From Kiritimatiellia bacterium (GTDB taxonomy: Bacteria; Verrucomicrobiota; Kiritimatiellia; JAAZAB01): DNA of 64,000 nucleotides. Location of the stretch: the NCBI GenBank assembly GCA_028718125.1, contig JAQUMN010000005.1, positions 3,784 to 67,783 of the forward strand. Reading direction: 5' to 3'. Of this stretch, positions 20,206 to 63,802 are shown one piece after another. A model generated the notes under the pieces. The model made no database searches. It was not told the DNA's origin and saw nothing but the letters and a program-made list of their open reading frames with translations. The translations under genes were made by a program, and so were the position numbers. Each line of letters opens with the position of its first letter. The first letter of the stretch is position 1.

Positions 20206-20225
20206 TCAAAAAAGGAAATACGAAC

Positions 20226-30997: not shown

Positions 30998-31290
30998 GAC
31001 GATGGAAATGAGGTCAAAGTTCGTATCGGGTAGCGGTCTGCGGAGCCACATTGACCACGGCTATAACCTGTGTTTTCTCTCCGCAGCGGCTTTTATTCCT
31101 TCCTTTCCATCTGGGGAAATCTTCATATTCCCCTTGTTTTTCAAGGAGCTACCATCGCATCCAACCGAGGCTCCAAAATCAATCAGAGCGGCAATTTTTC
31201 CCGGGTTATAGCTGACAATCCTAAAACAAGGTTTTACCGAACAGAGCTCGAACCTGTGGTTGCTGCGTAAGTGCCACGCATATTCGACGC

Positions 31291-31719: not shown

Positions 31720-31764
31720 TTCAACGGGGTGGCGATAGTGTTGAACTTGCGGTTCGATAGTTTT

Positions 31765-32145: not shown

Positions 32146-32223
32146 CTTGTTTTATCGTGCGTTTACGGACCGCGACATGACATGCCGTCAATGCTCTGGT
32201 TCGATGCTTCTCTTTTTCCTTTT

Positions 32224-32601
32224 TTAAGCCAGTAGATTACCCGTACTATAATCGTTTTTTTTGCATTTGTTCCTTGCATTGATTATCATAAGGACGCCAA
32301 CAAAAAGAAATATCGCCGACAACATAAAGTAAAAGATAAATACAATAACACTGCCGCCGCTGAATCGACTTGATGCCAGAAATGTGTAGAAAGACCCAAT
32401 GAGAAATATTATTCCAGCAAATCGTTTCGCAATATTCAACTTTTTGATTATGCCGACAATACACAACATACTAACCACGGCTATTGTAATTGAGATAATC
32501 TTAAGCCGATAAGTATATAGTATGACTTTTAGCACTTGGACAATTGCTATATATGCAAGCAGTATTAAGGCCACAATATTTAGAATTCGCGTCTTTGTCA
32601 T
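32224..32601 (-). CDS. small multi-pass membrane protein
   Basis: 125 aa, 4 hydrophobic helices. AT-rich. Confidence 0.4.
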   Translation of the reverse strand: MTKTRILNIVALILLAYIAIVQVLKVILYTYRLKIISITIAVVSMLCIVGIIKKLNIAKRFAGIIFLIGSFYTFLASSRFSGGSVIVFIFYFMLSAIFLFVGVLMIINARNKCKKNDYSTGNLLA

Positions 32602-32839
32602 TTCTTACCTTCTATGATCGGCAATGAGGTTGAGGGGTACTATGCATCATCTTTTGTTGTTACGAGTGGGGCAAATCAACCCAAACCTGAAATTCAAAGT
32701 GATAATATCGTCTACAATCCGTGCGTTAAAGCACAAAACGGCACAATTTGACCAACTGGAAGGGCGCGGATAATCCATTCCACTGCCATATCTACAAATC
32801 ATTGAACTTGAGCGGCATCTGTCAGGTTATATCCGTGGT

Positions 32840-32854
32840 CTGCCCGAGGAGCCA
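32840..32854 (+). repeat. 15-bp copy of the tRNA-Asn 3' end (att-like direct repeat)
   Basis: CTGCCCGAGGAGCCA, identical to 57222-57236 (the last 15 nt of the tRNA including CCA). A chance 15-mer match in 64 kb is expected about 1e-4 times. Confidence 0.55.
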
Positions 32855-32856
32855 CA

Positions 32857-33004
32857 CAGTAGAACAAAGTTCACTGTGTGGCGGTGCAGTGAAGCGCAGC
32901 TTCTACTGCACTGACCCCCTTGTTTCCCCGCAGTAGAACGGAGTTCACTGCGGGGTGGTGCAGTGAGCCGTAGGCTCTACTGCACTACTCTCCTTGTTTC
33001 TTTT
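32857..33004 (+). repeat. two tandem about 74-bp units, each forming a nested hairpin
   Basis: Each unit has the form CAGTAGAA-n5-TTCACTG-loop10-CAGTGA(A)-n7/9-T(T)CTACTG-CACT...CCTTGTTTC. Both stems are preserved in both units while the loops differ. Confidence 0.6.
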
Positions 33005-34620: not shown

Positions 34621-37600
34621 TTACCCGCGTGATCCAGGCACCTTTATTTCGACGGTATGCTCGTGATGGTCGTCAACCAGCGCGATGGCGGCCAAGGGCT
34701 GCTCGTGGCCATCGACGATCATAGCGGGCGGTTGGGCAGCATCCGTCCCGACCCGGTTCACGGAGATGTGATAGAATGTTTCGCGGTAGCGATAATGAAG
34801 TTTGAACGATTCCCAGTCACGCGGCAGCCGCGGGCTCACCCGCAGGTGGTCCATTTCGAGCCGCAGACCGAGCAGCGTTTCGACGATCAGCCGGTACATC
34901 CAGCCCGCCGACCCCGTATACCAGCTCCAACCGCCGCGGCCGGTGTGCGGCGCGACGGCGTAGATATCGGCGGCAACGACATACGGCTCCACTTTATACC
35001 GGTTGACCTGCGAGGGATTCATGGCATGACGGATCGGGTTGAGCAGCTCAAAAAGCTCCCAGGCTCGCTCGATTTCGCCCAGTTCCGCGAATGCCATGAC
35101 CGCCCAGATCGCGCCATGGGTGTATTGGCCGCCGTTCTCGCGCACGCCGGGCGCATAGCCTTTGATGTAGCCGGGTTCAAGCGCGGATTTGTCGAACGGC
35201 GGATCAAAGAGCTGGATTAACTGTGCGTTGCGCCGGACCAGGCGTTGATCCACGCGCTCCATGGCCAGCCGTGCCCGCACCGGATCGGCCGCGCCTGAAA
35301 GCACCGCCCAGCTCTGAGCGATGGAGTCGATCGCGCATTCCTTGTTGGTAGCCGACCCGAGCGGTGTGCCGTCGTCGAAATACGCGCGCCGGTACCAGTC
35401 GCCATCCCACCCATGCTCTTCGATGGCCTGCCGCAACTGCGCGGCCTGCGCGGCGCAGTAGTCGGCAAACTCGGTCTCGCCCCGGCTGCGGGCCAGTTCC
35501 ACGAACTGGTGCAGCACATCGTAGAGTAAAAACGCCAGCCAGACGCTCTCCCCCCGACCTTTTTTGCCGACGAGGTTCATCCCGTCGTTCCAGTCGCCGG
35601 AGCCGATCAAGGGCAGCCCGTGTGCGCCGAATCGGAGGCCGTGTTTGATCGCCCGCACGCAGTGCTCATAGAGCGTGCCGTCTTCCCCCGAGCGTTGCGG
35701 CAGGTCGTAGTAGGCTTCCTCATCGGCATTCACGGGACGGCCTTCCAGGAACGGGACGCGTTCATCGAGCACGCCGGTGTCGCCGGTCGTCTTCACATAT
35801 CGGCAGGTCGCGTAGGGCAGCCAGATAAAATCGTCGGAGCAATGCGTGCGCACGCCCCGGCCGCTGGACGGATGCCACCAGTGCTGGACGTCGCCTTCGC
35901 CGAACTGGCGGCCGGCGCATCGTAACACATGTTCGCGGGCGACCCACGGGGCGGCATGCAGTAACGCGCTCGTGTCCTGAAGCTGGTCGCGGAACCCGTA
36001 GGCGCCGCCGGATTGGTAATACCCGCTGCGTCCCCACGTGCGACCGACCAGCGTCTGATACTCCAGCCAGCCGTTGACCAGCAGGTTCAAGGCGGGATCC
36101 GGCGTCTCGGCGTATACCACGCCCAGGGTCCGCTTCCAGAAGTCCCAGACATTTTCCAGGGCCAGCCGCGCGCTGGCCGGGCCGCTAAACCGCCGGACCA
36201 GCTGATGGGCCTCCTCGACAGAGTTGCCGGCGCCCAGCACAAAGACCAGTTCGCGTTCCTGGCCCCCGTCCAGGTCGAATGTCACCTGCAGCGCCGCGCA
36301 GGGGTCGAAGCTGGCCCCCGTCTGGCCGGACAGCTGCGCTTGGCGCATGGCGGCGGGACTGGCTGGCGTGCCGTTGCGCCCCAGAAACTCCGTGCGGTTG
36401 CCGGTCATCGTCCGCTGGGCGTCGCTGACGTTTACGAAAACCGTCTTGCCGGCGAACTCCCGGTTATACACATTGCGGGCAAAGAGTGCGCCCGTCGTCG
36501 GGTCGATCTCGGTGACGATGTGCATCAAGTTCGAATGCCGCCACTGGCCGAGGACCCATTCCCAGTACCCCGTGGCCGACAGGCGCCGCGTCCGTCCCGA
36601 GCCGTTGCGCACCTTGATCACCGCCAGTTTAACGGGTGCGTCCAGCGCGACGTAGGTCCACAGTTCCGAGCTGATTCCCAGGTGCGTTAACTCAAACACG
36701 CTGTAGCCGAAGCCGTGCCGGCAGATGTAGGTACCGGGAGCGCGCGCGGGCAAGGGAGTCGGCGACCAGAACTGACCGGTTTCCTCGTCGCGGAGATAAA
36801 ACGCCTCCCCGCTGGGGTCCCCCACGGGATCGTTGTGCCATGGGGTCAGGCGGAATTCGTGGGCGTTATCAACCCAGGTGTAGGCCGAGCCGCTTTCGGT
36901 GATCACCGTGCCGATCTGGGGGTTGGCCAGGACGTTGGCCCACGGCGCGGGGGTGGTCTGCCCGGGCGCGAGCGAAATCACATATTCGCGGCCATCGGAC
37001 GTGAAACCGCCCAGGCCGTTGAAAAAGATGCATTCCCGTTTGTTCGGCACGGTTTTTTCCGCCGGCAGCATGGCCCGCGTGGCGATGAAGCGCGGAACCT
37101 TCCGTTCCACCGGTGTCTGCCGCTCCACTTGCTCGGCCAGGGTTTCGGCGCTGTCGGTGAGGATCACGCGCGCGACGGTCTGCAAGAGGACCCGCTCTTC
37201 CTCCGAGAGCTGTTCGCTGCGCCGCAGAAAAATCCCGCCGGGCTTGTCGACGCGTTGCGCTTCCGTGCTGGCGGCGATCAAGCCCAGGATGCGGTCCTGT
37301 AAAACCTGGCGATAGCCGGAAAAATCTTCGTTCAGGATGACCAGGTCCACCGTCAAGCCTTTCTCGCGCCAGTAGGCATGGGCCTGGAGCATCTGTTTGA
37401 CCAGGTCGATCCGATGCACGTCGGCGATGCGCATCAGGACGATCGGCAGGTCGCCCGAGATCCCGAAGGTCCACAAGCCGGACTGGTTGAGCCGGTTCCG
37501 GGTGAGAATGCCGGTGCTGGCGCGGTGGAACGGATTGGCGTGAATGACGGAACTGGCCAGCTGGGCATACACCTGCGCCTCTGCCTCGGTCACCTGCAAC

Positions 37601-40600
37601 TGGCGCAACACAAGGTCGCTGTGCGACCAGGCCATCTCGAACGCCCGCGCCGCGATGCCGGGATCGCGATACTTGGCAATCAACTCCAGCGCCCCGGCGC
37701 GCGTTTCGGCCATGCCGGAGATGATGTGCCATTCGGCGGAGGCGTCGGGTTCGATGGCGAGGCTTTTGCGGATGGCCACGATCGGATCGAGCACCGTGCC
37801 ATCCGTGTTGGAAAGCGGGGCGACCTTGTCGAATGCGGCCGGATGGACGACGGAGCGGCAGCGGCCGATGAAGGCGGACCGGTCCGTTTCGTACGAGATC
37901 TCGCCCGCCGGTGTGCCGGGCGTGCTCATCAGATGAAACATCCACGGCGGGTTCTCCCCGGACGCGCGCGGCCGGCGCGTGCAGAGAATGGCCTGCGCGG
38001 GGTAAAGGATCTCGGTTTGCACGAACAGGTTGCTGAACGCCGGGTGCGCCAGGTCCGCGGTCAGCGGGGCGATGACGACTTCCGCGTAACTGGTCACCTC
38101 TATCGTGCGCGTACGGGAAGAGAGATTCGTGAGCGTGATGCGGCGGACTTCGACGTCGTCTTCGGGCGACACGGCGATTTCCGTGTGTGCATCGATGTCC
38201 TCGTCGCGGCGCCGGTATTCGGCGCGCCCCTGCGCAAAGATGGCTTCATACTTCCTTGCGATCCGCCGCGTAGGCTGGTAGGCCGAGGACCAGAGCGCGC
38301 CCGTGGCCTCGTCGCGCAGGTAGCAGAAGGTGCCCCATCCGTCGCACGCGGCGTCTTCGCGCCAGCGCGTGACCGTCAGGTCCTTCCAGCGGCTGTATCC
38401 GCCGCCCGCCTGGGTCGCCATGACCTGATAGCTGCCATTGGACAGCAGGTGCACCTCGGGAATGGGCGTGTGCGGCGAGGGGAACACGCGCAGGGTGGCA
38501 GCGGCGGCCGCCGCCGGAGGCCGCCGCGCCACGTTGACTTCCGCCGTGTGCGGCTGCAACGAGGATGCCGCCCGGGGGATGCGCTCGCATAACAGCAGCT
38601 CCGATGCCTTAAACCACGGGTCGGCGAGGAACCGGCGCTGCATGGGCCGATCGAGCAGCCGGTAGGCAAGGGCCAGCAAGCTCATCCCCTGGTGATGCGC
38701 CATGTAACTGCGCAGCGGCACGCAGGTCTTGCCGCGGGGAACGCGCGCGGGCGTGAAATCGATGGCTTCATAAAGCCCGTATAGGCCGTGATACCCGTTC
38801 TCCGAGAGCTTCTCCAGATTCCGGCATGCCTCGCGGGGCGCGACCATCAGCGCCAGCACCGACGCATAGGGCGCAACGACCAGGTCGTCGGCAAGACCGC
38901 GCTTGAACCCCAGGCCCGGTATGCCGAATGCGCCGTATTGATAAGCGCCCTGGGCGTCGGTGGTAGCGTAGCACGACTCGGAAATGCCCCAAGGCACGCC
39001 GCGCTGCCGGCCGTATTCGACCTGCCGGGACACGATGGCCTGGTAGGTCTGATCGAGCAGCGTGTGCTCATAGGTTGGCATCACCAGCAGCGGCATCAGG
39101 TACTCGAACATTGACCCGCTCCATGATACCAAGGCCAGGGCGCCCTCGTGGGTGGTTAATTGCCGGCCCAGGGCGAACCAGTGATCCTGCGGCAACTGGT
39201 CCTGGGCCACGAGCATAAAACTTGTCACCCGCGCCTCCGAGGCGAGCAGGTCGTAATACGATGGATCGCGGCGCCGGTCGGTGACGTTGTAGCCGATCGA
39301 CAACAAATCGCGGGTGGGATCGTAGAGGAACGCGAAGTCCATCGCCGCCTGCTCGCTGCAACGCCGGGCGAGCAGATCGATCTGCCGGATATACTCGGCG
39401 GCGCGATCGCTCGGGGCGAGCGCACCGGCCGCCTCCTGCAAGGTCGGCACGTGGTCAAACTGCTGCGGCTCGGGAACGAGGCCGTGCACGTCATCCCGCA
39501 TGGCGTCGCACTGCCGAATGAACGCTTGCATCCACCCGCGCTGTTCCGCGCTGCCGTGGATGGGCAGTGCGGCGATCTCATGGCTGAGCGCCTCGAGCAG
39601 CGTCAAGGCGGCCGCTACCGTGGGGGGCGCCGGAGCGCGCAGTTTTTCGCGCAGCTGCCCGATGGCCGGCGAGGACACCTTGTCCAGGGTATCCTGAAGC
39701 CCGGCCAGGAGGCGGGGCGAAACGACGGGTTGGTTTTTCAATTCCAACAACCCGGTGCGCAGGATGAACAACGCTCCGGCCAGATTGCCGCTATCGACGG
39801 TCGATACATACATCGGCCGCAGGGGTTTGAGCGTGCGGGTGTCGTACCAGTTGTAAAGGTGGCCCCGGTAGCGTTCGAGCCGTTCCATCGTGGCCAGCGT
39901 TTTGTCCGTCCGGTCGATCAGTTGACCGATACCGAGATAGCCGAAGTCGCTTGCGGCCAGATTGGCCAGCAAGGCCATGCCGATGTTGGTTGGCGAGGTG
40001 CGGGAGGCGACCATCGGCGCCGGGACTTCCTGAACATTATCGGGCGGCAACCAATGTTCTTCCGCATTGACCAAGTCTTCGAAATAGCGCCAGGTTTGCC
40101 GGGACAAGCCGCGCAGGAACGTCTGTTGCGCCGCGGACAAAGCCGGCGGGTCGGTCACGAGCGGACGGCTGATCCACCAGCCGACGGCGGGAGACACCAG
40201 CCACATCAGCAACAACGGCCCGCTGAAGGCCAGTTCGCCGGGGTGCGTTACGGCGAGTCCCGCGAGTCCGGCCACGGCGAACACCGGCGCGACCCACATT
40301 TCGCGAACGAAATCGGCCAGCGTGGTGCAGGCGTTGCGCGCCTCATAACGCGGCGTATACCAGAGCAGCAGGCCGCGCCGCGTGAACAGCATGCGAACGC
40401 CGGAGACAAAAATCGCATCTAGCGTGATGACCGCGCGATAGGGCAACGTGCTCAGCCTCAGGCCGGCCTCCGCCGCCTGGCGCCCCAGCGATTTGAGGGC
40501 GGTGTGCAGATGAAGGCCCCAGGTCCGTTCCCTGGGTTTGCGGACCATGTCCAGCAGGGCGGCCAACAGCAAGGGCAGCAAGAACAACAGGAGCACGAAC

Positions 40601-43146
40601 AGGGTCCAGAAGCCGGCCGGCTGCGGGGCGATGATCCAGCCGCCGAGCAGGAGCAGCCACAGGGCGGGCGGCACGAGGCTGCGGCGCAGATTATCGAATA
40701 TTTTCCACCAACCCAGCGCCGTGAGTATCGTGGGCACGCGCCGGCCGGAGGGGCCGGGCACGCGCGGCAGGAGCCAGCCGGCAATCTGCCAGTCCCCCCG
40801 GATCCAGCGATGGTTGCGGCTCATGTCGGCAGCGAAATTCGCGGGGTGGTCCTCGTATAATTCCACATCCGCGACCAGCGCCGAGCGGGCATACGTGCTT
40901 TCCAGCAAATCGTGACTCAAGATGAGATTTTCCGGGAAGCGCCCGGCCGTGGCCCGCCGAAACGCGTCCACGTCATAGAGGCCTTTGCCGGTGTAAGATC
41001 CCTCGTCAAACACATCCTGGTACACATCGGAAACCTCGTGCGTGTAGGGATCAATCCCCGCGTCGCCGGCCATGAGCCGGGCGAAGAGCGAGCGATTGGC
41101 CGCGATCAGGCTGATGGGCGTGCGGGGCTGCAAAATGGCGTAGCCCTCGACCACGCGGCCGGTCTGCGCATCCAAGCGCGGCCGGTTCAGCGGATGGGCC
41201 ATCGTGCCGATCAGGGTGCGGGCGGCATCGCGCGGCAAACCGGTATCGCTATCCAGCGTGAGGACGTATCGGATCGTGGAAAGGATCGCCGTGTCGCATA
41301 GGATCTCGGAAAATGGGCTGCGCTCCCCGCCGCGCAGCAGCGCGTTGAATTGCTCCAGTTTGCCGCGTTTGCGTTCGTAGCCCATCCAGAGGCGCTCGTG
41401 CGGATTCCAGGCGCGCGACCGATGGAACAGCTGGAAAACGGTCTGGCCCTCGGGGCTGTACCGCGCATTCAGGGACTGGATGCCGTTGCGCGCCCGCTGC
41501 AACAAGTCCGCGTCGTCGGTCTGGACCGGCTCGGTCGCGTCGCGGAAATCGGTGAGCAGCGCAAAATAAATGTTGGGGTCGCGGTTCGCCAGGTAGCGGA
41601 TCTCCAGGTCTTCCAGCAAGTCGGCGACAGCCTGCGGGCTGGTCAGGAGCGAGGGTATAACCACGATGGTGCGCTCGGATGATGGAATCCCTTTCGAAAA
41701 GTCCAGGCGCGGTACCAGGTGCGGGCCGATCGCGATCGTCGCCAGCACGTTTACCAAGGCGACCGCCAGGTGCGAGGCGCCGATGACAGCCAGCCCCGTC
41801 AATAGCCAGACCCGCCAGTCGTGCCAGCCAACCAGGCTGGCCGGCGCCAGCACCAGACTGGCCGCCGCTGCCGTGACGATCAACAGGGAACAGATATAGC
41901 AGAAAAGCGGATGCCGGCGAAGCGTCCGGGCGAGGGTCTGACAGAGGGAGGGGCGGATACCGATGGCGCGCTCCAGGTGCGGGCGGCCCTTGTCGATGAG
42001 ATAGAATCCCACATGGGCCTCGCGCGCCGGCGGGCCCTCGCGCCGGGAGGCGTCCACCGCGAGTTGGATCGCGGCGCGGGCCACCGCGTCCTCGGCCTTG
42101 CCGCTCCGCCGCGACAAGGCTTCGACACAGCGGCGATAGCGGTCGCGCGTGATGAAATCCATTGCGGCATACACGCCGGCGGGGTCGGTATGAAGCACCT
42201 GCTCGATGATACTCGCCGACTCAACGAATTTCCGCCAGTCCATCGCGCTCAGGAAGCGCAGGCTCCCGATGCTGCTGCCGATCGAGACCTGGTCGGCGGC
42301 CTGGGTCTGGTTGTCCGCCCGCTGCAATTGGTCGCGCGTCATGCCTTGTTCGGCCAGGCGATGCTCCACCCAGCTCAGGACGGTTGCCAGCGACGGACTC
42401 CCTCCCTGCAACCGCCCGCAGAACTCCTCCACAAACTGGTTGTTGAACGGCGGATCGGACTGGGCCATCTCCGCCATGACGCGGAGGACCGTGGCCGAAT
42501 CTTTCTCCGCCACCGCCAACAGGCGTCCGGCCCACCGGCCGGCCAGGTTCCGATCGCGCCAGCGCCGGGCAATGTGCACCGAGACCCGCCGCAAGTTCTC
42601 GATCAGCCCCAGCCGCAGCATGATCGGCACGGCCCACAACTCGCCGAGCGTCAACGGGGTAACCGACTGGTAGGCGGCGACAAAATGGCTGACATTTTCG
42701 GCGTCGATCCGCCCGTCCACGTGGGAAATCAGTTCGAGGGCGATATCATAAACCCGGGGGAACCCGGCCGAGGCGCCCGTCAGCAAGCGCGGCAATTCGC
42801 GGCTGTAGGTCCGCGGCAAATGCAGCCGCGTCAGGCGGATTTGCTGCTCGATCAGATAAAAGTTATCCAGCAGCCATTCGCCCGCCGGGCCGGCGTGCCG
42901 GCCATCGGCTTCTGAGCGCGTCACCAGGTCATAGGCCTGAACGAGAACCTGTTCGTTATCCACCAATCGCAGCAGCAGCCTGTTCGACCCGCGTTTGGGG
43001 TTGATCCGATGCTGTCCCGCCAGCGTGATGGCATGCCGGCGCAGCTGTTCGTCGCTGAAGAGTTCGGTGCGCAGGGTCGGTTCGCTCGCGCGCGATCGCG
43101 CCTGCCTCGCTTTCCAGATGTGCCAGCGTAGCGATAGGGGCTGCAT
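34621..43146 (-). CDS. ndvB: cyclic beta-1,2-glucan synthase (GT84 glycosyltransferase + GH94 phosphorylase domains)
   Basis: 2841-aa single ORF. N-terminus ...LVDNEQVLVQAYDLV...GEWLLDNFYLIEQQIR typical of Cgs/NdvB/ChvB. Central membrane-spanning GT region. C-terminal GH94-like domain. Size matches the family (about 2.8-2.9 kaa). Confidence 0.85.
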   Translation of the reverse strand: MQPLSLRWHIWKARQARSRASEPTLRTELFSDEQLRRHAITLAGQHRINPKRGSNRLLLRLVDNEQVLVQAYDLVTRSEADGRHAGPAGEWLLDNFYLIEQQIRLTRLHLPRTYSRELPRLLTGASAGFPRVYDIALELISHVDGRIDAENVSHFVAAYQSVTPLTLGELWAVPIMLRLGLIENLRRVSVHIARRWRDRNLAGRWAGRLLAVAEKDSATVLRVMAEMAQSDPPFNNQFVEEFCGRLQGGSPSLATVLSWVEHRLAEQGMTRDQLQRADNQTQAADQVSIGSSIGSLRFLSAMDWRKFVESASIIEQVLHTDPAGVYAAMDFITRDRYRRCVEALSRRSGKAEDAVARAAIQLAVDASRREGPPAREAHVGFYLIDKGRPHLERAIGIRPSLCQTLARTLRRHPLFCYICSLLIVTAAAASLVLAPASLVGWHDWRVWLLTGLAVIGASHLAVALVNVLATIAIGPHLVPRLDFSKGIPSSERTIVVIPSLLTSPQAVADLLEDLEIRYLANRDPNIYFALLTDFRDATEPVQTDDADLLQRARNGIQSLNARYSPEGQTVFQLFHRSRAWNPHERLWMGYERKRGKLEQFNALLRGGERSPFSEILCDTAILSTIRYVLTLDSDTGLPRDAARTLIGTMAHPLNRPRLDAQTGRVVEGYAILQPRTPISLIAANRSLFARLMAGDAGIDPYTHEVSDVYQDVFDEGSYTGKGLYDVDAFRRATAGRFPENLILSHDLLESTYARSALVADVELYEDHPANFAADMSRNHRWIRGDWQIAGWLLPRVPGPSGRRVPTILTALGWWKIFDNLRRSLVPPALWLLLLGGWIIAPQPAGFWTLFVLLLFLLPLLLAALLDMVRKPRERTWGLHLHTALKSLGRQAAEAGLRLSTLPYRAVITLDAIFVSGVRMLFTRRGLLLWYTPRYEARNACTTLADFVREMWVAPVFAVAGLAGLAVTHPGELAFSGPLLLMWLVSPAVGWWISRPLVTDPPALSAAQQTFLRGLSRQTWRYFEDLVNAEEHWLPPDNVQEVPAPMVASRTSPTNIGMALLANLAASDFGYLGIGQLIDRTDKTLATMERLERYRGHLYNWYDTRTLKPLRPMYVSTVDSGNLAGALFILRTGLLELKNQPVVSPRLLAGLQDTLDKVSSPAIGQLREKLRAPAPPTVAAALTLLEALSHEIAALPIHGSAEQRGWMQAFIRQCDAMRDDVHGLVPEPQQFDHVPTLQEAAGALAPSDRAAEYIRQIDLLARRCSEQAAMDFAFLYDPTRDLLSIGYNVTDRRRDPSYYDLLASEARVTSFMLVAQDQLPQDHWFALGRQLTTHEGALALVSWSGSMFEYLMPLLVMPTYEHTLLDQTYQAIVSRQVEYGRQRGVPWGISESCYATTDAQGAYQYGAFGIPGLGFKRGLADDLVVAPYASVLALMVAPREACRNLEKLSENGYHGLYGLYEAIDFTPARVPRGKTCVPLRSYMAHHQGMSLLALAYRLLDRPMQRRFLADPWFKASELLLCERIPRAASSLQPHTAEVNVARRPPAAAAAATLRVFPSPHTPIPEVHLLSNGSYQVMATQAGGGYSRWKDLTVTRWREDAACDGWGTFCYLRDEATGALWSSAYQPTRRIARKYEAIFAQGRAEYRRRDEDIDAHTEIAVSPEDDVEVRRITLTNLSSRTRTIEVTSYAEVVIAPLTADLAHPAFSNLFVQTEILYPAQAILCTRRPRASGENPPWMFHLMSTPGTPAGEISYETDRSAFIGRCRSVVHPAAFDKVAPLSNTDGTVLDPIVAIRKSLAIEPDASAEWHIISGMAETRAGALELIAKYRDPGIAARAFEMAWSHSDLVLRQLQVTEAEAQVYAQLASSVIHANPFHRASTGILTRNRLNQSGLWTFGISGDLPIVLMRIADVHRIDLVKQMLQAHAYWREKGLTVDLVILNEDFSGYRQVLQDRILGLIAASTEAQRVDKPGGIFLRRSEQLSEEERVLLQTVARVILTDSAETLAEQVERQTPVERKVPRFIATRAMLPAEKTVPNKRECIFFNGLGGFTSDGREYVISLAPGQTTPAPWANVLANPQIGTVITESGSAYTWVDNAHEFRLTPWHNDPVGDPSGEAFYLRDEETGQFWSPTPLPARAPGTYICRHGFGYSVFELTHLGISSELWTYVALDAPVKLAVIKVRNGSGRTRRLSATGYWEWVLGQWRHSNLMHIVTEIDPTTGALFARNVYNREFAGKTVFVNVSDAQRTMTGNRTEFLGRNGTPASPAAMRQAQLSGQTGASFDPCAALQVTFDLDGGQERELVFVLGAGNSVEEAHQLVRRFSGPASARLALENVWDFWKRTLGVVYAETPDPALNLLVNGWLEYQTLVGRTWGRSGYYQSGGAYGFRDQLQDTSALLHAAPWVAREHVLRCAGRQFGEGDVQHWWHPSSGRGVRTHCSDDFIWLPYATCRYVKTTGDTGVLDERVPFLEGRPVNADEEAYYDLPQRSGEDGTLYEHCVRAIKHGLRFGAHGLPLIGSGDWNDGMNLVGKKGRGESVWLAFLLYDVLHQFVELARSRGETEFADYCAAQAAQLRQAIEEHGWDGDWYRRAYFDDGTPLGSATNKECAIDSIAQSWAVLSGAADPVRARLAMERVDQRLVRRNAQLIQLFDPPFDKSALEPGYIKGYAPGVRENGGQYTHGAIWAVMAFAELGEIERAWELFELLNPIRHAMNPSQVNRYKVEPYVVAADIYAVAPHTGRGGWSWYTGSAGWMYRLIVETLLGLRLEMDHLRVSPRLPRDWESFKLHYRYRETFYHISVNRVGTDAAQPPAMIVDGHEQPLAAIALVDDHHEHTVEIKVPGSRG

Positions 43147-56253: not shown

Positions 56254-56892
56254 GACGACAAGAACCGGACGACTCTCATCCGCTATCCGGCGGGCAAAGC
56301 CGGAAGCTATGCGGTCCCCAGCGGCGTGACCCTCATCGGGGACAGGGCATTCCGGAGGTGTGCGAGTCTGACCAGCGTCATGATCGGCAATGGCGTCACC
56401 CTGATCGGGGACAAGGCCTTCCAGAAATGCGCCAGCCTGACGGCGATCACGGTGGACGCGCTCAATGCCGCCTACAGCAGCGTGGACGGGGTCCTGTTCG
56501 ACAAGAGCCAGACGGCGCTCATCCACTATCCGGGCGGTAAAGCCGGAAGCTACGCGGTTCGCAGCACTGTCACGGCGATCGGGGACGAGGCGTTTTATTC
56601 CTGCCGCGGTCTGACCGGCGTCACGATCCCTGTCAGCGTCACCGCGATCGGGGATGCGGCCTTCTATGCCTGTACCGGCTTAACCGGCGTCACGATCCCC
56701 GATAGCGTTACGGCGATCGGGGAGGGGGCGTTTTATTCCTGCGCCAGCCTGGCCGGCGTTTTGATCGACAGCGATACCGCCAGTATCGGCAACGGCGCAT
56801 TCGGCGACTGCAATAAGAAACCGGAGGAGCTCACCGTATCGTCCACGGTATGCAGCGTATTGACAAGTGGCGTGGCCTCTTTCTTGTTGTAG
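56254..56892 (+). pseudogene. BspA-type leucine-rich-repeat protein fragment (no start codon)
   Basis: Frame is open from the preceding stop with no ATG. Repeated ...VT(A/L)IGD(E/A)AF(Y/Q)(S/A)C.(G/S)LT(G/S)V(T/M)IP.(S/G)V units are typical of BspA-like LRR_5 proteins. Confidence 0.4.
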
Positions 56893-57161
56893 CCGCCCCG
56901 ATCAGATTTATGTTCCCTGTTGGCAACCTGTCTTTCCGCAAGCTTGATTAGCGGGATAGTGTCCTTGGCAAGCATTTACGATGATCGTTAGTAGGGTGTG
57001 GCCCCGCTTTGAGCAATGTAATCCTGTGTGCGTGCCATGCCAAGGCGTGGTCGCGCCATGGTCTGCCCTGAAGCCCTTCGGAATGAAATGCGCCCGTTTG
57101 ACAACGGGAATTGACACCGCCTCGTTTCTTGGTATTGTTCAGCAGGTTTTATCCACATCAT

Positions 57162-57236
57162 TCCGCGATAGCTCAATGGTAGAGCGGGTGGCTGTTAACC
57201 ACTAGGTTGCAGGTTCGAGCCCTGCCCGAGGAGCCA
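57162..57236 (+). tRNA. tRNA-Asn (anticodon GTT), with two acceptor-stem mismatches
   Basis: Hand-folded. D-arm GCTC/AATGGTA/GAGC. Anticodon arm GGTGG/CTGTTAA/CCACT. Variable loop AGGTT. T-arm GCAGG/TTCGAGC/CCTGC. 3' acceptor strand CCGAGGA + G + CCA. 5' acceptor strand TCCGCGA gives G4-A69 and A7-C66 mismatches. Confidence 0.6.
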
Positions 57237-58925
57237 GCCCCTTGGCATTACGAACTTATCCCCCTCCTTCGGGGAAACGCCTGTAAATAGGTCGGTTGCG
57301 TAAAGGGTCATGTTAACCAGATACCATTTAGTTCGTATTCGCGCCTTGAATACTCCTGGTTCAGCGGACATCTGATCCTTTTCCGGGTCAAAGTGGTTAA
57401 CAGTCACTTCCTTCACCAGAAGGCGAATTAACTCCTTCTGATCCTCCGGCGGCAACACCCGAAATACTTTTCCGAACTGCAGCAAGCTGTCGGCAATCAC
57501 CCTGGCATCTGTAACCACTTTCTCCCGGTACTGAATGTCGATCTTGACCTTCTCCCGCTCCAACTCAACCTGCCGTTTTTCCTCGGCCAACTGTTCCGCT
57601 TCTCGGATCATTTCATCGCTGATTCGTTTTGCGCCCTCTTTCTTCGCTGTGTCCATGAAATTCTTGACGGCTACAGACAGCTTATCGAACTGCTGGTCAA
57701 GCTCGGCCAGTTTGGCCTTCAGTGGTTTGATACCCTTATTCTTGGTCTCGTCGGCCGCTTTAATGGTCGCCTTAATGATATCCGGATGCTTCCCGATCTC
57801 GCCGATGTACCCGATGATCAGATCCTCAAATGGCCGCGCCGGGATGTTCCGAACCGAGCACTTGGCCTCTCCGCCTTCTTTTGAGACGTTCGTACAGGTG
57901 TAGTATAGGTATTGATTGCCGTTCTTATCCTTCTTGCCGGCGGGCTTTGGGGTGAGGCTGAGGCCACAATGACCGCATTTCAACAGGCCCTTCAATAGAT
58001 GAACATGCCGGTCCTGATGCAGGAAGATCGGGCCTTCCTTTTCTTTTGGACGCAACGCCTCGTTTGCCGACTGCCAGAGTTGCTGAGACACGATGGCAGG
58101 ATGTTCGGAGGGATATTCCTTGCCGCCATTGATGACGACCCCCTTATAGATTGGATTCGCTATCATCTCCTGTATACGACCACTGACAAACCTCTTATCG
58201 CCAACCACCTTGGTTGATCCGTCTTTTTGAACAAGGATTCGCTTTCGCGTGCGCCACCCCATCTTATTTAGGTACTTGGCCACGGCCGTCGGATTCTTGA
58301 GCTGGACCGCCTCGTCGAATGCTTTCGTCACAAGTTCTTGCTCGGCTGGTTTCAGGATAAGCTTCTGGTTTTTTTTGTCGTAGTCGTATCCCGTTGGCAC
58401 CCAGCCGCCGTTCCACTTGCCCTGCTGGGCGCGCTGGATGAGCTTATGCCGTGTGCGCTCACGGGTCTGTTCGCGCTCGAATTCCGCAAAGCTCAGAAGC
58501 ATATTCAGGAAAAGCATTCCATGCGGTGTAGCCGTGTCAATCTGCTGTGTAGCGCTGGCAAAGTTTACATTGTGCCGCCGGAGCTCTTCCCATAACCCAT
58601 AGAACTGCCGAAGTGATCGCGACAGCCGATCGAGCTTATAGACCACAATCATATCAACATTGCCGGCCCTTGCCTCGGCCAGCAGATTGTTAATCCCTGG
58701 CCGGTCCATCGTACTCCCCGAATAGCCGGAGTCTTCGAGATGCAGAGCGGACACCCATCCCTCTTCCTTGTGAATGGCAATATAGTGCTCGCAGATGTCC
58801 TTTTGCGCATCAAGTGAACTATACTCCCCCTGCGCCTGGTCGTCTGTTGATACGCGGGTATAGATCGCACATCGAACTGTTTTTGTGGCAACTTGTCTTG
58901 CAGATTGTTTAGAGTTCGTATTCAT
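57195..58925 (-). CDS. large serine recombinase (integrase)
   Basis: N-terminal resolvase catalytic domain (AIYTRVSTDDQ, VVYKLDRLSRS). Recombinase domain. Zn-ribbon (CGHCG...C..C) and a long coiled coil. The last 14 codons are encoded antisense to the tRNA-Asn 3' half. Confidence 0.85.
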   Translation of the reverse strand: MNTNSKQSARQVATKTVRCAIYTRVSTDDQAQGEYSSLDAQKDICEHYIAIHKEEGWVSALHLEDSGYSGSTMDRPGINNLLAEARAGNVDMIVVYKLDRLSRSLRQFYGLWEELRRHNVNFASATQQIDTATPHGMLFLNMLLSFAEFEREQTRERTRHKLIQRAQQGKWNGGWVPTGYDYDKKNQKLILKPAEQELVTKAFDEAVQLKNPTAVAKYLNKMGWRTRKRILVQKDGSTKVVGDKRFVSGRIQEMIANPIYKGVVINGGKEYPSEHPAIVSQQLWQSANEALRPKEKEGPIFLHQDRHVHLLKGLLKCGHCGLSLTPKPAGKKDKNGNQYLYYTCTNVSKEGGEAKCSVRNIPARPFEDLIIGYIGEIGKHPDIIKATIKAADETKNKGIKPLKAKLAELDQQFDKLSVAVKNFMDTAKKEGAKRISDEMIREAEQLAEEKRQVELEREKVKIDIQYREKVVTDARVIADSLLQFGKVFRVLPPEDQKELIRLLVKEVTVNHFDPEKDQMSAEPGVFKARIRTKWYLVNMTLYATDLFTGVSPKEGDKFVMPRGWLLGQGSNLQPSG

Positions 58926-59157
58926 ATACACATGCATAGTATCATATTACGAACTATATGCAACCATATTTATCATACAAAATTTTCTGACCACGACTCC
59001 GCCAGCATCAGCTGGATATACGACTAACCACCGAGTGTCTGTCCTGAGCGAACCTATGGTGAGTAAAATCGAACCAGTCGAAGGGCCGATGGATCGCCAA
59101 GCACCAGATTTTAACCGGCTGGTTCTGAAATAGCCGAAGATTGAATAGCGACCTTGC

Positions 59158-62100
59158 CTATTTGCTCTCGCCGGTGAGCATACGCCAGACTTGATGATAA
59201 TCGTTACCTGTCATAGCAGCATCTTTCGGAACCACTGTCTGCCAGTCCTTGACGGTGAGAGAACGGATAAATTCCCTGGCAATCGCCGGGGTCTGGTTGT
59301 CCTTGCCGCATTTCTTGAAGACTTGCCCAAGCGGAACGGCAACACTCCGTGGTACAGAATGCATTCTCATCATAACTGCTTCATGCGTGGGTACACCGTA
59401 GTAGATCATGGCTGGTAGTGCGTTGATTATGCGCTTCTGTTCTTCGTCGAGTTTCGAAAAGTCAATGCCACTTGTTGGAAGTTTGCTGAGTGTAGCAAGC
59501 CCCCACGTAGCGGACAGGCATAAGTGTCCGTAGATAGCTCTGCATGCTTGCGAGATCGCATCTGTAATGTCACGCGTTCTTGCTCCCTGCTTCTGAAAGT
59601 ATTTTTTCCCAAGAGTTTCTAATGAAGCTCCATTAACCCAGTCGGACGTAAGACCGGCGAGAACCTTGTGTTCCAATCCGTGCGGAGCAATTCGCTGAAG
59701 CTGGGCGCTGATTTCAGGTAAACGGAGCATGATTCCCATCAGACTCTGAAACGCCACGTTGTTGCGCCCAAAGAGGCCTTCTGGGCACCAATCTCTCGGA
59801 GCGACTTTGTTGTGGAGTGCGCCAATCGCACATCGCAACGTTTCTGGAGAGAATCCCGTAGCATCAGCTAGTGTTGCGAGGCTTTTTTGCTTGGATATCC
59901 ACACGCCGAATTGCTTAGTTACTGACAGGAGAGTTTTTGCCTTGTCAGGTGCTTTTCTCTCCAGGCTGCGATATCCCAGGGTGTTCCTGAGTATGCGCTC
60001 AGCTTGAGAGACAAAACTCTCAGGCGATTGAGTTTGGTTGTATATGTGAGCCAAATACCCCCAAAATGCATGCCATTCCGGCTTGTTCAAGACAGAATCA
60101 AAACCAATGGATGTCCCAGTCTGCAGAACCTGATCGATTAGCGATTCGAGAATGGAAACGAGTTCACGGTGTTTCTCGCACACGTAAGATTCAATCTGGC
60201 GTCGATGCGCTGTATCCTTAAACTTCGTGGCAATCCCAATGACTCCAAGGCTTTCTTGAAAGATTCTACCGGCACGGCCCGCAAGATTCCAGAAATCGTG
60301 AGTGGGCATTGGTATATAAGGATAATTCAAAGATGCCAAGAACACTGCCGAAACAGGGAAATTGATGCCTTGTGCAATAGTGGTTGTCGCGCAAATAGCG
60401 CGAACATCATTCTCTTCGGCCAATTGTTCAATCAGCGCGCGGGCATCATCAGAAAGTCCAGAATGATGCACAGCAATGCCGTGTTCAAGCATGTCACACA
60501 ATTCAAAGGTTGGACTTATTTCCGTCTTGAGAAACTTCTGCACCAAACGGATAGAGTCGGGAACCCGGTCAAGTTGACCAAGAGCGGAACATAGTGATCG
60601 AGCCATTTGCCATGCTTCGCCTTGGTCGGTAGTAATCGCGAGCACCAATGAACGTGGTTTCTCGGCAAAAACTTTCGCCATCGCTGCCGTTTGGAGATAG
60701 AGAGTATTCGACACGCGGCTGAATGTCTCATCCAAGATGCCCGGTGATCCAACTTGGAACTGACCATCCAGATACATAGTGCCGGGAGTAGTGTGGAGGG
60801 TATTGAAGTGTAAGGACCATTTTCGGGGCTTCTCCCCTTTTTTTGAGTGGAATATGCCAACAATACGCTCGTTTGGTTGCCAAGCGGTAACACCTATGGA
60901 TGCTGAAGCTTCAATATCAGGCGAGAGCCATTCAGCAATCTCTTTTGCATTAGGAATAAAGGGCGTTAACAAGAGAAAACTGGCCTTTGCGCAGTCACGC
61001 TTAACCGTTGCCAAAAGGAGCTCCAGTTTAAGGCCACGGGAGGATTCCTGTATGTTGTGTGCTTCGTCAATAACAACCAGAGCAAGAGGTCGCTGGACTT
61101 TGTTCTGGCGAATTACGAGATCAAGCTTCTCGGGAGTAGTTACCAAGACATGAAATCCATCTTTGGCTGAGAGGATATCGTCCTCAAATGTGTCGATTTC
61201 TATAGCACCCGATAATTGTTCAACACGTATTCCGACGGCGCCCAGTTCCTTGCGCAATTGCCGTGTCTGTTGCGCCACGAGGGCTCGCGTCGGAGCCGTG
61301 TATGCGACCCAACCCCCATCTTGGGCAAACTGATTGAGCGCCTGCAATACTCTGAAAATGGCCAAGAATGTTTTTCCCGCAGAAGTTGGCAAATTGATAA
61401 CTATTGAACGTTTAGCCGGATCAAGAAGCCCTTGCTCCAACAATGCCGCTCGTTGCGGAGGTAACAGCTCAAACAAATTTCGAGCGTCTCTGCGCGTGAC
61501 ATATTGAACATACTTTGTCACGCGTGAGTTCACCACATGAGCTATACGCCAGATTGAACTCTGAACCATGTGCCGGGCTGTTAGATGTAGCCATCTTAGG
61601 AGCACCTCGAGTTCAGCATCTCTTGCATTTCTCGCCGCTTCCGAAGCCTTATCGAAATGGGTGTCTATCTGCACATCGACGTCGTTTGGTGTTCCCTGCA
61701 TGAGAAATGTCGCGGTCATCTCGGTTGCGGCAGCCCAGTGGTATAGAGCCGCTAGTGTCCATCCTGCGAAGGATTTCTGCTCTTCCGACAGAGCGTTTAA
61801 GTGTTGCTCTTCGTATTCCGCTTGATCTTTGCGGAGCCCAGCCACCACTTCGGCAACCCGCCCCAAATCGTTCCAGCCATCCTTACGAACCAAGCATATC
61901 CAAGCCTCAAACATGCGAAAAAGAATGCGTTTGTCCCATGGAACGTCGGCCACATTAGGGGCAATTACAGCTACATCGTGTTCCTTGATCCATCTACGAG
62001 CATCCGACCATCGTTTGCCGACATATGCAAAGGCAATAAGTTTAAGAACGTGATATACACGAAATTCATGAGGAACGGGAAGAGGAAGAGTTCGCATGAT

Positions 62101-62472
62101 GGAGAAGGCCGCAGAGCAGTCAATTTCGGCTTCCGCCCTAGATGAAGCGTTATCGTCTGTCGGACGAATCAAAGCGAACCAGGATTCGAGAGCCGCAATC
62201 TCCAGTGCCTGAAGAACTTTGTTTGTCGCTTCCGCTTCTTTGGTTGCATCGTAGGGCTGGAGGTTCAACAGAGATCCTATGGCATCTGTCACAAGATGCT
62301 TGTCGGACTCGTCAATCGCATGCTGAATCGTATCTTGCCCAATGACGTCGAGTGCCCAGTGGGAGGGTATTTTCACAACTTCACCTTCTGACCGGATGAT
62401 ACATTGTCTTGCCATTCTTTGATTGGGATTGAAACGTATAGCGCGAGCAACAGAATATCCGGGGTATCGCAC
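59158..62472 (-). CDS. DExH-box SF2 helicase, HamB-like (Hachiman candidate)
   Basis: Motif I NLPTSAGKT, motif II VVIDEAHNI, motif V CATTTIAQGINFP, motif VI NLAGRAGR. About 1.1 kaa with a long N-terminal non-helicase region. Probable true start at 62415 (MARQCIIR), overlapping the upstream gene. Confidence 0.5.
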   Translation of the reverse strand: MRYPGYSVARAIRFNPNQRMARQCIIRSEGEVVKIPSHWALDVIGQDTIQHAIDESDKHLVTDAIGSLLNLQPYDATKEAEATNKVLQALEIAALESWFALIRPTDDNASSRAEAEIDCSAAFSIMRTLPLPVPHEFRVYHVLKLIAFAYVGKRWSDARRWIKEHDVAVIAPNVADVPWDKRILFRMFEAWICLVRKDGWNDLGRVAEVVAGLRKDQAEYEEQHLNALSEEQKSFAGWTLAALYHWAAATEMTATFLMQGTPNDVDVQIDTHFDKASEAARNARDAELEVLLRWLHLTARHMVQSSIWRIAHVVNSRVTKYVQYVTRRDARNLFELLPPQRAALLEQGLLDPAKRSIVINLPTSAGKTFLAIFRVLQALNQFAQDGGWVAYTAPTRALVAQQTRQLRKELGAVGIRVEQLSGAIEIDTFEDDILSAKDGFHVLVTTPEKLDLVIRQNKVQRPLALVVIDEAHNIQESSRGLKLELLLATVKRDCAKASFLLLTPFIPNAKEIAEWLSPDIEASASIGVTAWQPNERIVGIFHSKKGEKPRKWSLHFNTLHTTPGTMYLDGQFQVGSPGILDETFSRVSNTLYLQTAAMAKVFAEKPRSLVLAITTDQGEAWQMARSLCSALGQLDRVPDSIRLVQKFLKTEISPTFELCDMLEHGIAVHHSGLSDDARALIEQLAEENDVRAICATTTIAQGINFPVSAVFLASLNYPYIPMPTHDFWNLAGRAGRIFQESLGVIGIATKFKDTAHRRQIESYVCEKHRELVSILESLIDQVLQTGTSIGFDSVLNKPEWHAFWGYLAHIYNQTQSPESFVSQAERILRNTLGYRSLERKAPDKAKTLLSVTKQFGVWISKQKSLATLADATGFSPETLRCAIGALHNKVAPRDWCPEGLFGRNNVAFQSLMGIMLRLPEISAQLQRIAPHGLEHKVLAGLTSDWVNGASLETLGKKYFQKQGARTRDITDAISQACRAIYGHLCLSATWGLATLSKLPTSGIDFSKLDEEQKRIINALPAMIYYGVPTHEAVMMRMHSVPRSVAVPLGQVFKKCGKDNQTPAIAREFIRSLTVKDWQTVVPKDAAMTGNDYHQVWRMLTGESK

Positions 62473-63161
62473 TCAGAAAGAGTCTTTGCGCGCGCACGAA
62501 GATCGTCCTCATGAGGGGCTGTTGTACGAACCAGGATGCCGGTCAGCCAAATAGTCTTCCTGTCGCCAAGATAGGCCTTGCAGGCCGTACGATAATCGCT
62601 CTCCCACGCCTGACCTTTATGACGAAAGCCCAAGTATCGAACTAACGTGTCTGTGACATCTGTGTTACGCGCAAGCGTTTCAATTTGAGCAATCATACCA
62701 CTTCGCCCGTAAAGAACACCTGGGGGTTGTGTCGAATCCTCTGAAGTCTTTACCTCGCCAAAGGCAAAAGCAACAGTGGTGCCCTTGTTTCTCAAACCGA
62801 CAATGTCAGCGCCAGCTTGACTTGCATTAGGATTCCGAAGGTCCCGGCCACTGTGCCATGGAAAAATACATTCATGATGTTCTTCAAGGTAACATTCTGC
62901 AACAGCTTCGCCTATACGCCAGGTTGGGACGATTTGTGATTGCATGAGTCTGGCGAGATTCTTTGCCTCAAAGCGAGTCAAAACAAGAGACGTGATAGAA
63001 CTTTCAAGTTCTTCTTTCGCAGTAACATCTGCGACACGATTGGCCACAACGCCGGAAAGAGCCATCCGGGCTTCATTAAGTGCAAACTGCCACCCAGAAG
63101 CAGATACTTTCCCATGAGTGATATCGAATGCTTTGCGGCCTCTTGGAATTGTCGTTTTCAT
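62373..63161 (-). CDS. HamA-like protein with PD-(D/E)xK-type motif (DUF1837-like; tentative)
   Basis: 262 aa, located immediately upstream of and overlapping the helicase. ...GADIVGL...VAFAFGEVKTSED fits a D...E.K nuclease core. Assignment is by synteny and motif only. Confidence 0.4.
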   Translation of the reverse strand: MKTTIPRGRKAFDITHGKVSASGWQFALNEARMALSGVVANRVADVTAKEELESSITSLVLTRFEAKNLARLMQSQIVPTWRIGEAVAECYLEEHHECIFPWHSGRDLRNPNASQAGADIVGLRNKGTTVAFAFGEVKTSEDSTQPPGVLYGRSGMIAQIETLARNTDVTDTLVRYLGFRHKGQAWESDYRTACKAYLGDRKTIWLTGILVRTTAPHEDDLRARAKTLSECDTPDILLLALYVSIPIKEWQDNVSSGQKVKL

Positions 63162-63802
63162 TCCGATATCTTCTTTTCTAGAACCTTATCACAATCAGGC
63201 TTGCCTATGCCACCTTCGACTGAGGAAAATCCCATAGAAAGCAAGTTGCGGTTGGCCTCATGGTTGAACGTGAAACGGGGTTTGTTCCATTTGGAGATTA
63301 CACGGCAGAGGGTTTCGGTTTTACTGCCTGGGGCGGCGTAAGCAACAAAGACTTTCTCGGCCAGAGCGGAAATGATCAGATTACGCTTCAATGCCGTTTC
63401 TGCCGTGGCTCTCTTTGTCCTGCCATCAAATGGCGATGCTAGGATCATTCGGCCTTCCTCCATAAGCTGGCGGAATTCGGCAGGAATTCGAACGGGAAGA
63501 CCGCGGCCCATTACTACGCACACTGGAACTGATGCTCGGAGAAGAATATTGAGGACTTCCCGTTCGACCGGCGAGTGAAACCCGCCAATGACAGGCGTGG
63601 ACAAGGCAATAAAGTTCTTAGCAAGATCATAGCATTGAAGAATTAGACTGCCGGGGCACTTGACTGAGCAAAGAAACGCAGTATAGGAACTGGCAAGCAA
63701 TTCCTCGGGACCGTACCCATGAAACGTTATATGCAACCGACATGGTTTTTTGAGTGGTCCCATTTGAGCGGTATTTTCAAAGCTGTGTTTCCAAGGGATC
63801 AT
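63158..63802 (-). CDS. DprA/Smf-like Rossmann-fold (SLOG superfamily) protein
   Basis: ...ALSTPVIGGFHSPVEREVLNILLRASVPVCVVMGRGL...ILASPFDGRTKRATAETALKRNLIISALAEKVFVAYAAPGSKTE parallels the DprA core (SE..pg..p....F..RNRii..ls...lvvea...SGsl). 4-nt overlap with the HamA-like gene. Confidence 0.5.
   Translation of the reverse strand: MIPWKHSFENTAQMGPLKKPCRLHITFHGYGPEELLASSYTAFLCSVKCPGSLILQCYDLAKNFIALSTPVIGGFHSPVEREVLNILLRASVPVCVVMGRGLPVRIPAEFRQLMEEGRMILASPFDGRTKRATAETALKRNLIISALAEKVFVAYAAPGSKTETLCRVISKWNKPRFTFNHEANRNLLSMGFSSVEGGIGKPDCDKVLEKKISE

Follow-up and report, generated by a model that had tools for sequence, protein, structure and literature searches.

The phage large serine recombinases (LSRs) of Listeria A118/LI, phiC31, Bxb1 and SPbeta carry Resolvase, Recombinase and zinc-ribbon domains in the same order as the enzyme described here, and they are alike in an attP of ~50 bp, an attB of ~40 bp, a 5-bp motif shift between the two and a non-palindromic central dinucleotide. 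In contrast to them, the present LSR would target the 3′ end of a tRNA gene and reuse the T-loop as an outer motif, its attP would overlap its own 3′ end, and its cargo consists of defence islands and not of a phage. The tRNA islands of tyrosine integrases (P4-like) likewise have an integrase beside the 3′ end of a tRNA, restoration of the gene, stacked arrays and defence cargo, but their enzymes belong to an unrelated family and 15-45 nt of the tRNA is found as a direct repeat, whereas here ~5 nt would be exchanged and the flanking repeat is 11-15 nt long because the P and B arms are similar. For the SSV1 integrase and the integration-dependent immunity of mycobacteriophage BPs, both of which use tyrosine recombinases, attP lies inside the gene and a regulatory meaning of the changed 3′ end has been shown; here too the crossover would lie within an ORF whose 3′ end changes on integration, but the swapped tail of ~12 residues is not conserved and is probably functionless. 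Tn3/gamma-delta resolvase is a small serine recombinase that autoregulates at res, and it resembles our case in having a repeat of the recombinase binding site over its own promoter or start; the present enzyme is large, not small, and an operator function is deduced from its repeat.

Serine recombinase elements at tRNA genes have been described: LSRs occur in 27 of 937 tycheposon-type elements of Prochlorococcus (bioRxiv 10.1101/2020.12.28.424599), and the Paracoccus phage vB_PamS_Pami6 has a serine recombinase and integrates at a tRNA-Met (PMC6536676). We liken both to the present element by their description, and in the portions of the two papers available to us we found no att geometry, integrase-tRNA overlap or operator; as far as those portions go, serine recombinases at tRNA genes are known but rare. 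In the literature searched, we found no description of the T-loop as an outer motif, of crossover in the last acceptor pairs, of attP in the 3′ end of an integrase gene or of an operator-like repeat at its start codon.

The whole stretch of DNA that was analysed, 64 kb long, is called the window, and its features are collected in Table 1. Its tRNA-Asn marks attL, the left junction of a defence-gene island that an LSR carries. In our main reading, to which we assign a probability of about 0.5, the host tRNA-Asn is the attB of this LSR clade, 57162-57257 is attL, and the tRNA is a hybrid produced by homologous recombination between two alleles, A and B.

Table 1. Coordinates of the features discussed, in window numbering unless a locus is named
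Feature	Position	Strand	Basis or remark
Defence-island array	5900-32854		Ank, HEAT-NTPase, HerA-like, JAB+E1-like, TOTE PrimPol-helicase, AbiE, ParB-HTH
attP-type junction at 25996	25966-26017	+	perfect 9-bp inverted repeat AGTTCGTAT/ATACGAACT
Remnant of the LSR-start operator-like repeat	26089-26130		75 nt from the 25996 attP-type junction
attP-type junction at 31048	31019-31070	+	P_a arm + GA + GCCA + reverse complement of P_b arm
attR-type junction	32823-32854	+	P_b arm CAGGTTATATCCGTGGTCTGCCCGAG + GA + GCCA, with hairpin-bearing host DNA after it
Sigma-70-like promoter of the tRNA, TTGACA-16-TATTGT	57111-57138	+	sequence
tRNA-Asn(GTT), hybrid of two alleles	57162-57236	+	ARAGORN, Rfam, 13 related loci
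B half-site (host arm of attL)	57206-57230	+	holds T-loop and variant bases 57226, 57229
T-loop GGTTCG, presumed zinc-ribbon motif	57212-57217	+	inside B half-site
Inferred crossover dinucleotide GA of GGAGCCA	57231-57232	+	tRNA positions 70-71 of 75; canonical 71-72
P′ half-site (element arm of attL)	57233-57257	+	GCCA + 13 variable nt + ACGAACTT
ACGAACTT motif of P′ half-site	57250-57257	+	
LSR gene, 580 aa	57195-58937	-	Pfam; 3′ end antisense into tRNA
41-bp inverted repeat GTTCGTA...TTACGAAC	58914-58954		over LSR start codon; same place in 9 close relatives
Start-codon repeat, copies in other loci	L001 9972-10012; L165 5922-5962; L166 8550-8590; L169 9973-10012		
Start-codon repeat, further loci	L003, L164, L174, L180		
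PDC-M23B helicase, island cargo	59158-62472	-	Pfam, PADLOC
PDC-M23A, island cargo	62373-63161	-	Pfam, PADLOC
DprA-like protein, island cargo	63158-63802	-	Pfam, PADLOC
Loci with distant LSRs	L006, L010, L016, L019, L026, L035, L047, L091, L098, L099, L102, L104, L108, L139, L148, L150, L158		

ARAGORN finds one tRNA in the window, tRNA-Asn(GTT), and Rfam RF00005 matches 57162-57233 with 59.2 bits (E 3e-10, gathering score 29). The sequence-only reading had folded this tRNA by hand, with good D, anticodon and T arms and with two mismatches in the acceptor stem, G-A and A-C; both parts of that description are borne out. All three arms are paired, the discriminator G and CCA are encoded in the gene, and the acceptor strands (5′ TCCGCGA, 3′ CCGAGGA) form five of their seven pairs, against seven of seven in relatives. 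The RF00005 alignment marks the two exceptions with a ‘v’: G57165/A57229, the canonical pair 4-69, and A57168/C57226, the canonical pair 7-66. Since the tRNAs of five close relatives score 70.7-71.5 bits with Rfam, the deficit of 12 bits is peculiar to the window tRNA, and scoring by program, as the earlier reading had proposed, removes its worry that the letters had been miscopied. The cloverleaf has an energy of -21.2 kcal/mol, compared with -28.5 to -29.7 kcal/mol in relatives, and it is not the minimum-energy fold of the window tRNA. The product of the hybrid gene is predicted to be weakened, and a weakened tRNA-Asn would be tolerable only if another tRNA-Asn gene were present.

The origin of the two non-pairs becomes apparent when the alleles of related loci are laid side by side. 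Allele A (TCCGCGA...TCGCGGA) is carried by L166, L168 and L001 and allele B (TCCTCGG...CCGAGGA) by L167; contig L164 ends in a partial tRNA whose 3′ strand is that of L167, and the tRNA of L165 is a third variant. The window tRNA differs from that of L166 only at 57226 and 57229, and from that of L167 only at 57165, 57168 and 57208, so that its 5′ strand is that of allele A and its 3′ strand that of allele B, with a 57-nt core common to both alleles (positions 8-64) in between. This pattern is as directly observed as the tRNA and its mismatches, and it upholds the earlier proposal that the stem is not of ancestral make-up: set against 13 loci, it is a recombinant of two sequences and not the result of random decay. 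If the tRNA is redundant and decaying, two independent point mutations (57226 T to C and 57229 C to A) would agree with its predicted destabilisation and with contig breaks that hint at more tRNA-Asn copies. Both changes, however, match the states of a natural allele (L167, L164), the remaining tRNA is identical to relatives, and by our own calculation the odds that two random substitutions in a 7-nt strand recreate allele B are ~1 in 189; we therefore prefer recombination, whether real or in silico, to chance mutation, which we consider decidedly improbable. Within the window, neither an allele-B tRNA-Asn nor another recombination partner is visible, and there is no convincing copy of the ancestral end TCGCGGAGCCA or of a second T-arm or anticodon arm. 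A match at 31241 on the minus strand is a candidate second copy of a piece of the tRNA.

Comparison of 13 distinct loci (L001, L003, L165-L169, L084, L085, L087, L173, L174 and L180), whose LSRs are 35-93% identical to that of the window, shows directly that the tRNA accompanies the integrase throughout the family. In every one, a tRNA (11 Asn, 1 Gln, 1 Ser) lies antisense at the 3′ end of the LSR gene, and every acceptor stem is perfectly paired. The upstream flank of the tRNA follows the host locus and not the LSR: it differs fully among LSRs that are 85-93% identical, and the ~60-nt promoter flank of the window tRNA is common only to L166 (90% over 59 nt by BLAST) and L167 (80% over 64 nt). 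Because this flank changes with the locus and not with the LSR, the tRNA belongs to the host and the junction is attL. The sequence-only reading had entertained a copy of the tRNA borne by the element, not a host gene, and the constant adjacency of tRNA and LSR would fit this; but the divergence of flank and promoter, the lack of a tRNA body at attP-type junctions and, in L085, a native-looking terminator past the displaced 3′ end all contradict it, and we reject it as extremely improbable. Neither BLAST nor a search for repeats found an attR within 10 kb in L001, L003 or L166. L166 has a 14-nt match, but it falls within a coding ORF and points the wrong way, and we dismissed it as chance.

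Some loci show further arrangements. In L168, a second copy of tRNA-Asn (1158-1257, minus strand) lies ~500 nt upstream of the intact one; it is split by several short hairpin inserts and has no normal 3′ end, and a small GIY-YIG-like ORF is located between the two copies. Distant LSRs (30-35% identity), which belong to Planctomycetota, Acidobacteriota and viral contigs, have a tRNA for Asn, Met or Gln on the same strand, upstream of the LSR start by ~1.2 kb, and several of their loci show a CGAACTT-like motif ~13 nt past CCA. From these sequences, targeting of tRNA ends may extend well beyond the window clade, with another gene layout. On a Candidatus Eisenbacteria contig, L111, an inverted pair of tRNA-end-like sequences, GGTTCGAA(T/C)ACCGTCCCAC..GGGGAGCCA, with attP-type spacing (8743-8772, plus strand; 18667-18696, minus strand) brackets an LSR at a distance of ~10 kb from each other.

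The LSR gene overlaps the tRNA antisense by 42 nt, and the earlier claim that its last 14 codons lie antisense to tRNA positions 34-75 is confirmed, as 13 codons and a TAA stop, which on the tRNA strand reads TTA and belongs to the anticodon loop. A second possible start, at 58925 (MNTNS...), gives 576 residues and is likely the true one. The protein has the Pfam domains Resolvase (PF00239, 5.6e-40), Recombinase (PF07508, 5.1e-14) and Zn_ribbon_recom (PF13408, 4.9e-12), and both R28 and S30 of the catalytic motif YTRVST and the zinc-ribbon cysteines C321, C324, C348 and C360 are invariant across 38 homologues. Judged by its domains and site geometry, the enzyme is a bona fide large serine recombinase, with putative activities of attP x attB recombination and, with a directionality factor, excision; the sole candidate seen for such a factor is a fragment of an HTH_17-like ORF, recognised by eye at the start of L170. 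Homologues number more than 3000. In the alignment of 38, the protein is conserved to about residue 545, and the tails beyond vary and resemble antisense translations of tRNAs (e.g. ARTCNLVINSHPLYH or GGIRTHG). An exact-protein look-up of the 576- and 580-residue forms returned no record. Relatives in phage and plasmid collections are at most 36% identical, and there is therefore no episomal attP for comparison. Scans of viral and genome collections, from which loci L084, L085 and L087 were taken, gave LSRs mostly 30-44% identical among the matches listed.

The start codon of the LSR gene lies within the inverted repeat listed in Table 1, and nine close relatives have a repeat of 40-42 bp, GTTCG(T/C)A...(T/A)ACGAAC, over the same start (MNTNS). 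Its arm spacing is attB-like, and it may be an autoregulatory operator bound by the LSR itself. In addition, the 9-mer of the P′ recognition motif, ATACGAACT, also encodes the conserved LSR motif I-R-T (RIRTKWY). Its copies at 57330-57338 and 57248-57256 are inverted and 74 nt apart in the 3′ end of the LSR gene, which could be a coincidence, an RNA hairpin or an extra binding site.

Where the strands would be exchanged was deduced from the motif geometry of five junctions in two genomes, four in the window and one in L085, and not from an attB/attP/attL/attR set of the window element itself; arm coordinates count from the A of the tRNA CCA as 0. In 12 of the 13 relatives, ACGAACTT or a close variant occupies +14 to +21 past CCA, and the preceding 13 nt vary freely. 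It is read as K-F-V in the window subclade and as x-S-S in others, and because it is conserved in two reading frames it is a DNA signal. Its reverse complement, AAGTTCG, resembles the T-loop AGGTTCG. The attR of L085, whose tRNA is tRNA-Gln, reads AGTTTCGgactttctccaacTCCCGGAGCCA, 10.2 kb into the element, and is followed by a rho-independent terminator. In the attR arms at 32854 and in L085, a GTT(C/T)G-like motif is 5 nt farther from GGAGCCA than is the T-loop in the tRNA. The zinc-ribbon motif of serine integrases lies 5 bp farther out in attP than in attB (PMC3783163), and the sites here have that geometry, with an attP of ~50 bp, an attB of ~40 bp and the motif 5 bp closer in attB. The P_b arm is the left arm of one junction and the right arm of another, and the two match in exact mirror register at 17 of 18 nt about an axis at the step between G(-5) and A(-4). 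This comparison of arms across junctions was used in place of a dyad-symmetry score, which on reconstructed single sites was no better than shuffles and not significant. Taken together, this geometry would place strand exchange at the GA of GGAGCCA. Crossover in the anticodon loop or T-loop was considered and rejected, since attR sites have no tRNA sequence 5′ of position 61; covariation of the tRNA 31/39 pair with the host was also counted against it. A 12-nt inverted repeat (57192/57392) was rejected as an att feature.

With exchange at GA, the LSR would bind the T-loop GGTTCG of the tRNA and the mirrored AAGTTCG of the element arm, and the element would replace only the ~5 invariant last bases, (G)AGCCA. 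Having no stop of its own, the LSR ORF would read ~12 codons into the antisense tRNA; the crossover would fall in the first Leu codon after the Trp (57231-57233), and ~12 C-terminal residues and the stop would be host-encoded once the element is integrated. The earlier suggestion that the crossover lies inside the integrase ORF is thus supported for the integrated state, at ~12 codons before the stop. No function is expected of the swapped tail because it is not conserved as protein. As the swapped bases are invariant in the compared tRNAs, integration would never alter the tRNA, and the thirteen perfect stems would need no co-adaptation.

This placement bears directly on the mismatches. The sequence-only reading took them as the signature of integration, with the 3′ strand supplied by the element. 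The tRNA is indeed the attL of an LSR element, but supply of the mismatched strand by the element is not supported: 57226 and 57229 both lie on the host (B-arm) side of the GA, the element would give ~5 bases, and with both bases host-side its supply would not account for the mismatches. For the element to have brought the strand, the crossover would have to lie 5′ of 57226, and an element adapted to allele B would have moved CCGAGGA and GCCA into an allele-A host. The hybrid is exactly the combination of a host-type 5′ strand and an allele-B 3′ strand that this entails, a 15-nt block, CTGCCCGAGGAGCCA, recurs at another junction of the window, and in L085 the first base of this acceptor strand is where the attL/attR repeat begins. 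Exchange centred 5′ of 57226, however, would put the P′ motif 27-34 bp from the crossover and break the mirror register of both P_a/P′ and P_b/P_b, whereas the 51-bp palindrome at 25996 centres on GGAG. Furthermore, in each of the 13 relatives the strand agrees with the host, and elements only 5-9% diverged (L164 and L167 relative to L166) carry different strands. Supply by the element, which we regard as quite unlikely, survives only if the geometric inference of the crossover is wrong. The empty site would distinguish the cases: it would read ...CTGCCCGAG-GA-GCCA if the mismatches are host-side, but ...CTGCTCGCG-GA-GCCA (or ...CTGCTCGCGGAGCCA), with CCGAG(GA) to the right of the exchange on the circle, if the element supplied the strand.

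The same hybrid could also be made by assembly, if an allele-A locus was joined by way of the 57-nt core to the allele-B tRNA and island of a second genome; no cell would then contain such a tRNA. For the same strain, contigs built with k=31 end in the tRNA (L172, position 26) and in the LSR (L170); the breaks of independent contigs within the tRNA show that it is repeated in that sample. In related metagenomes, alleles A, B and C are found together, and composition changes at the tRNA, GC falling from 56-64% on its left to ~50% on its right. A real island is likewise expected to change composition there, though, and thirteen other assemblies passed the same junction without producing a hybrid. 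The host side, moreover, carries junctions of this LSR family at 25996, 31048 and 32854 without long repeats. We judge a chimera unlikely, if far from negligible.

Homologous recombination remains our preferred origin of the hybrid, and it is the most likely one because both differences sit host-side of the crossover. Recombination or gene conversion within the 57-nt core would join alleles A and B, and the partners could be two tRNA-Asn loci, each with a related island, or resident and incoming DNA. The core is short for this purpose unless homologous LSR genes downstream take part; islands with LSR genes 85-95% identical do lie downstream of such tRNAs and extend the available homology, and the window genome hosts several elements of this LSR family. 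Also in favour of this origin, the junction at 32854 carries the displaced end of a further tRNA. We infer this route from the allele pattern with moderate confidence, because the partner locus was not seen. Selection on element-borne ends could be an alternative reason why every relative has a matched stem.

To the right of the tRNA, the LSR adjoins the tRNA 3′ end, composition is foreign and the cargo is accessory, in keeping with an island. Its PDC-M23 pair is a candidate defence system, so classified by sequence matches. To the left lie genes of housekeeping type, for superoxide dismutase, rubrerythrin, ferritin and a leucine-rich repeat (LRR) protein; just upstream of the tRNA, 69-nt tandem repeats (56256-56775) in a host gene encode BspA-type leucine-rich repeats. 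An independent contig of the same strain, L170, is 100% identical to the window along 5570 nt and carries the island on for at least another 7.7 kb beyond it, with restriction-modification and helicase genes and without a far junction, so that the island is at least 14.5 kb long. No attR or att duplicate of the window element, which the earlier reading had proposed to seek to the right, was found in the window or in the 7.7 kb beyond its right end. No empty copy of the window locus was retrieved, and a look-up with the host ferritin gave one contig ending in the tRNA.

A second defence island, in the left half of the window, has junctions of the same kind. An exact 15-nt copy of the tRNA 3′ end lies at 32840-32854 (E 0.003), at a GC boundary, with CAGGTTatatccgtggt before it and hairpins and host-like DNA after it. 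It is a displaced tRNA end whose tRNA body is absent from the window, and terminator-like hairpins follow its GCCA. The junction at 25996 is a palindrome of 51 bp (25966-26016) centred on GGAG; its left arm is copied in the left arm of 31019-31070, and its right arm encodes a remnant of an LSR tail, KFVFPKGWLRR, the LSR gene itself having been deleted. The nearby remnant of the start-codon repeat marks, by its sequence, this deleted LSR. Cargo next to the LSR of L001 shares 85% identity with the segment 26293-28753.

In this neighbouring island, attP-type junctions link the units into a tandem array. One unit of 5 kb (TOTE PrimPol-helicase, AbiE, ParB-HTH) has lost its LSR but kept the tail remnant and the operator-like repeat; another of 1.8 kb (31049-32850) has three small ORFs, is flanked by inverted copies of one arm and has no LSR. 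Cassettes of this sort suggest mobilisation in trans. At the left edge of the array (~5.9 kb), we found no att-like site, tRNA or integrase; an ABC-3 permease ORF there (5288-5824) covers profile positions 94-254 of 258 and may be truncated. Adjoining genes for JAB-domain and ThiF/E1-like proteins (19573-21678), next to a HerA-like ATPase and a HEAT-repeat NTPase of 1236 residues, resemble ubiquitin-like conjugation defence modules. After the displaced tRNA end, 32855-33000 consists of two tandem units of ~74 nt, each with two perfect hairpins (e.g. CCACACAGT...ACTGTGTGG). A 17-nt piece of these units recurs upstream of the L167 tRNA, and they suggest a host-lineage repeat element or a terminator array. 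Farther right, an ORF of 2841 residues (34621-43146) is found in a block of 64-65% GC (36-50 kb) flanked by host-like DNA of 53-58%; the block may be another foreign segment.

Taken as a whole, these observations point, with doubt only slightly outweighing belief, to a widespread, uncharacterised clade of LSRs in Verrucomicrobiota-like and other environmental bacteria that would target tRNA 3′ ends, use the universally conserved T-loop GGTTCG as an outer motif, exchange strands in the last acceptor pairs, keep attP in their own gene and an attB-like operator at its start, and form tandem arrays of LSR-less defence cassettes mobilised in trans, with crippled hybrid tRNAs as collateral of recombination among occupied tRNA loci. 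If this is true, the tail of the LSR protein changes on integration. LSR ORFs that run into tRNAs inflate predicted protein tails. For genome annotation, a mispaired tRNA beside an integrase need not be the footprint of site-specific integration; its source can also be homologous exchange among occupied tRNA loci, or an assembly that joined sequences across a tRNA repeat. For inserting large DNA, serine integrases are the chief tools, and in nature they usually target idiosyncratic protein-coding genes. A 40-bp target made of the conserved T-arm and the acceptor end of a tRNA would, if the proposal holds, give near-universal landing sites in bacteria, with recognition rules that could be read from sequence: the motif, its 5-bp shift and the GA core.
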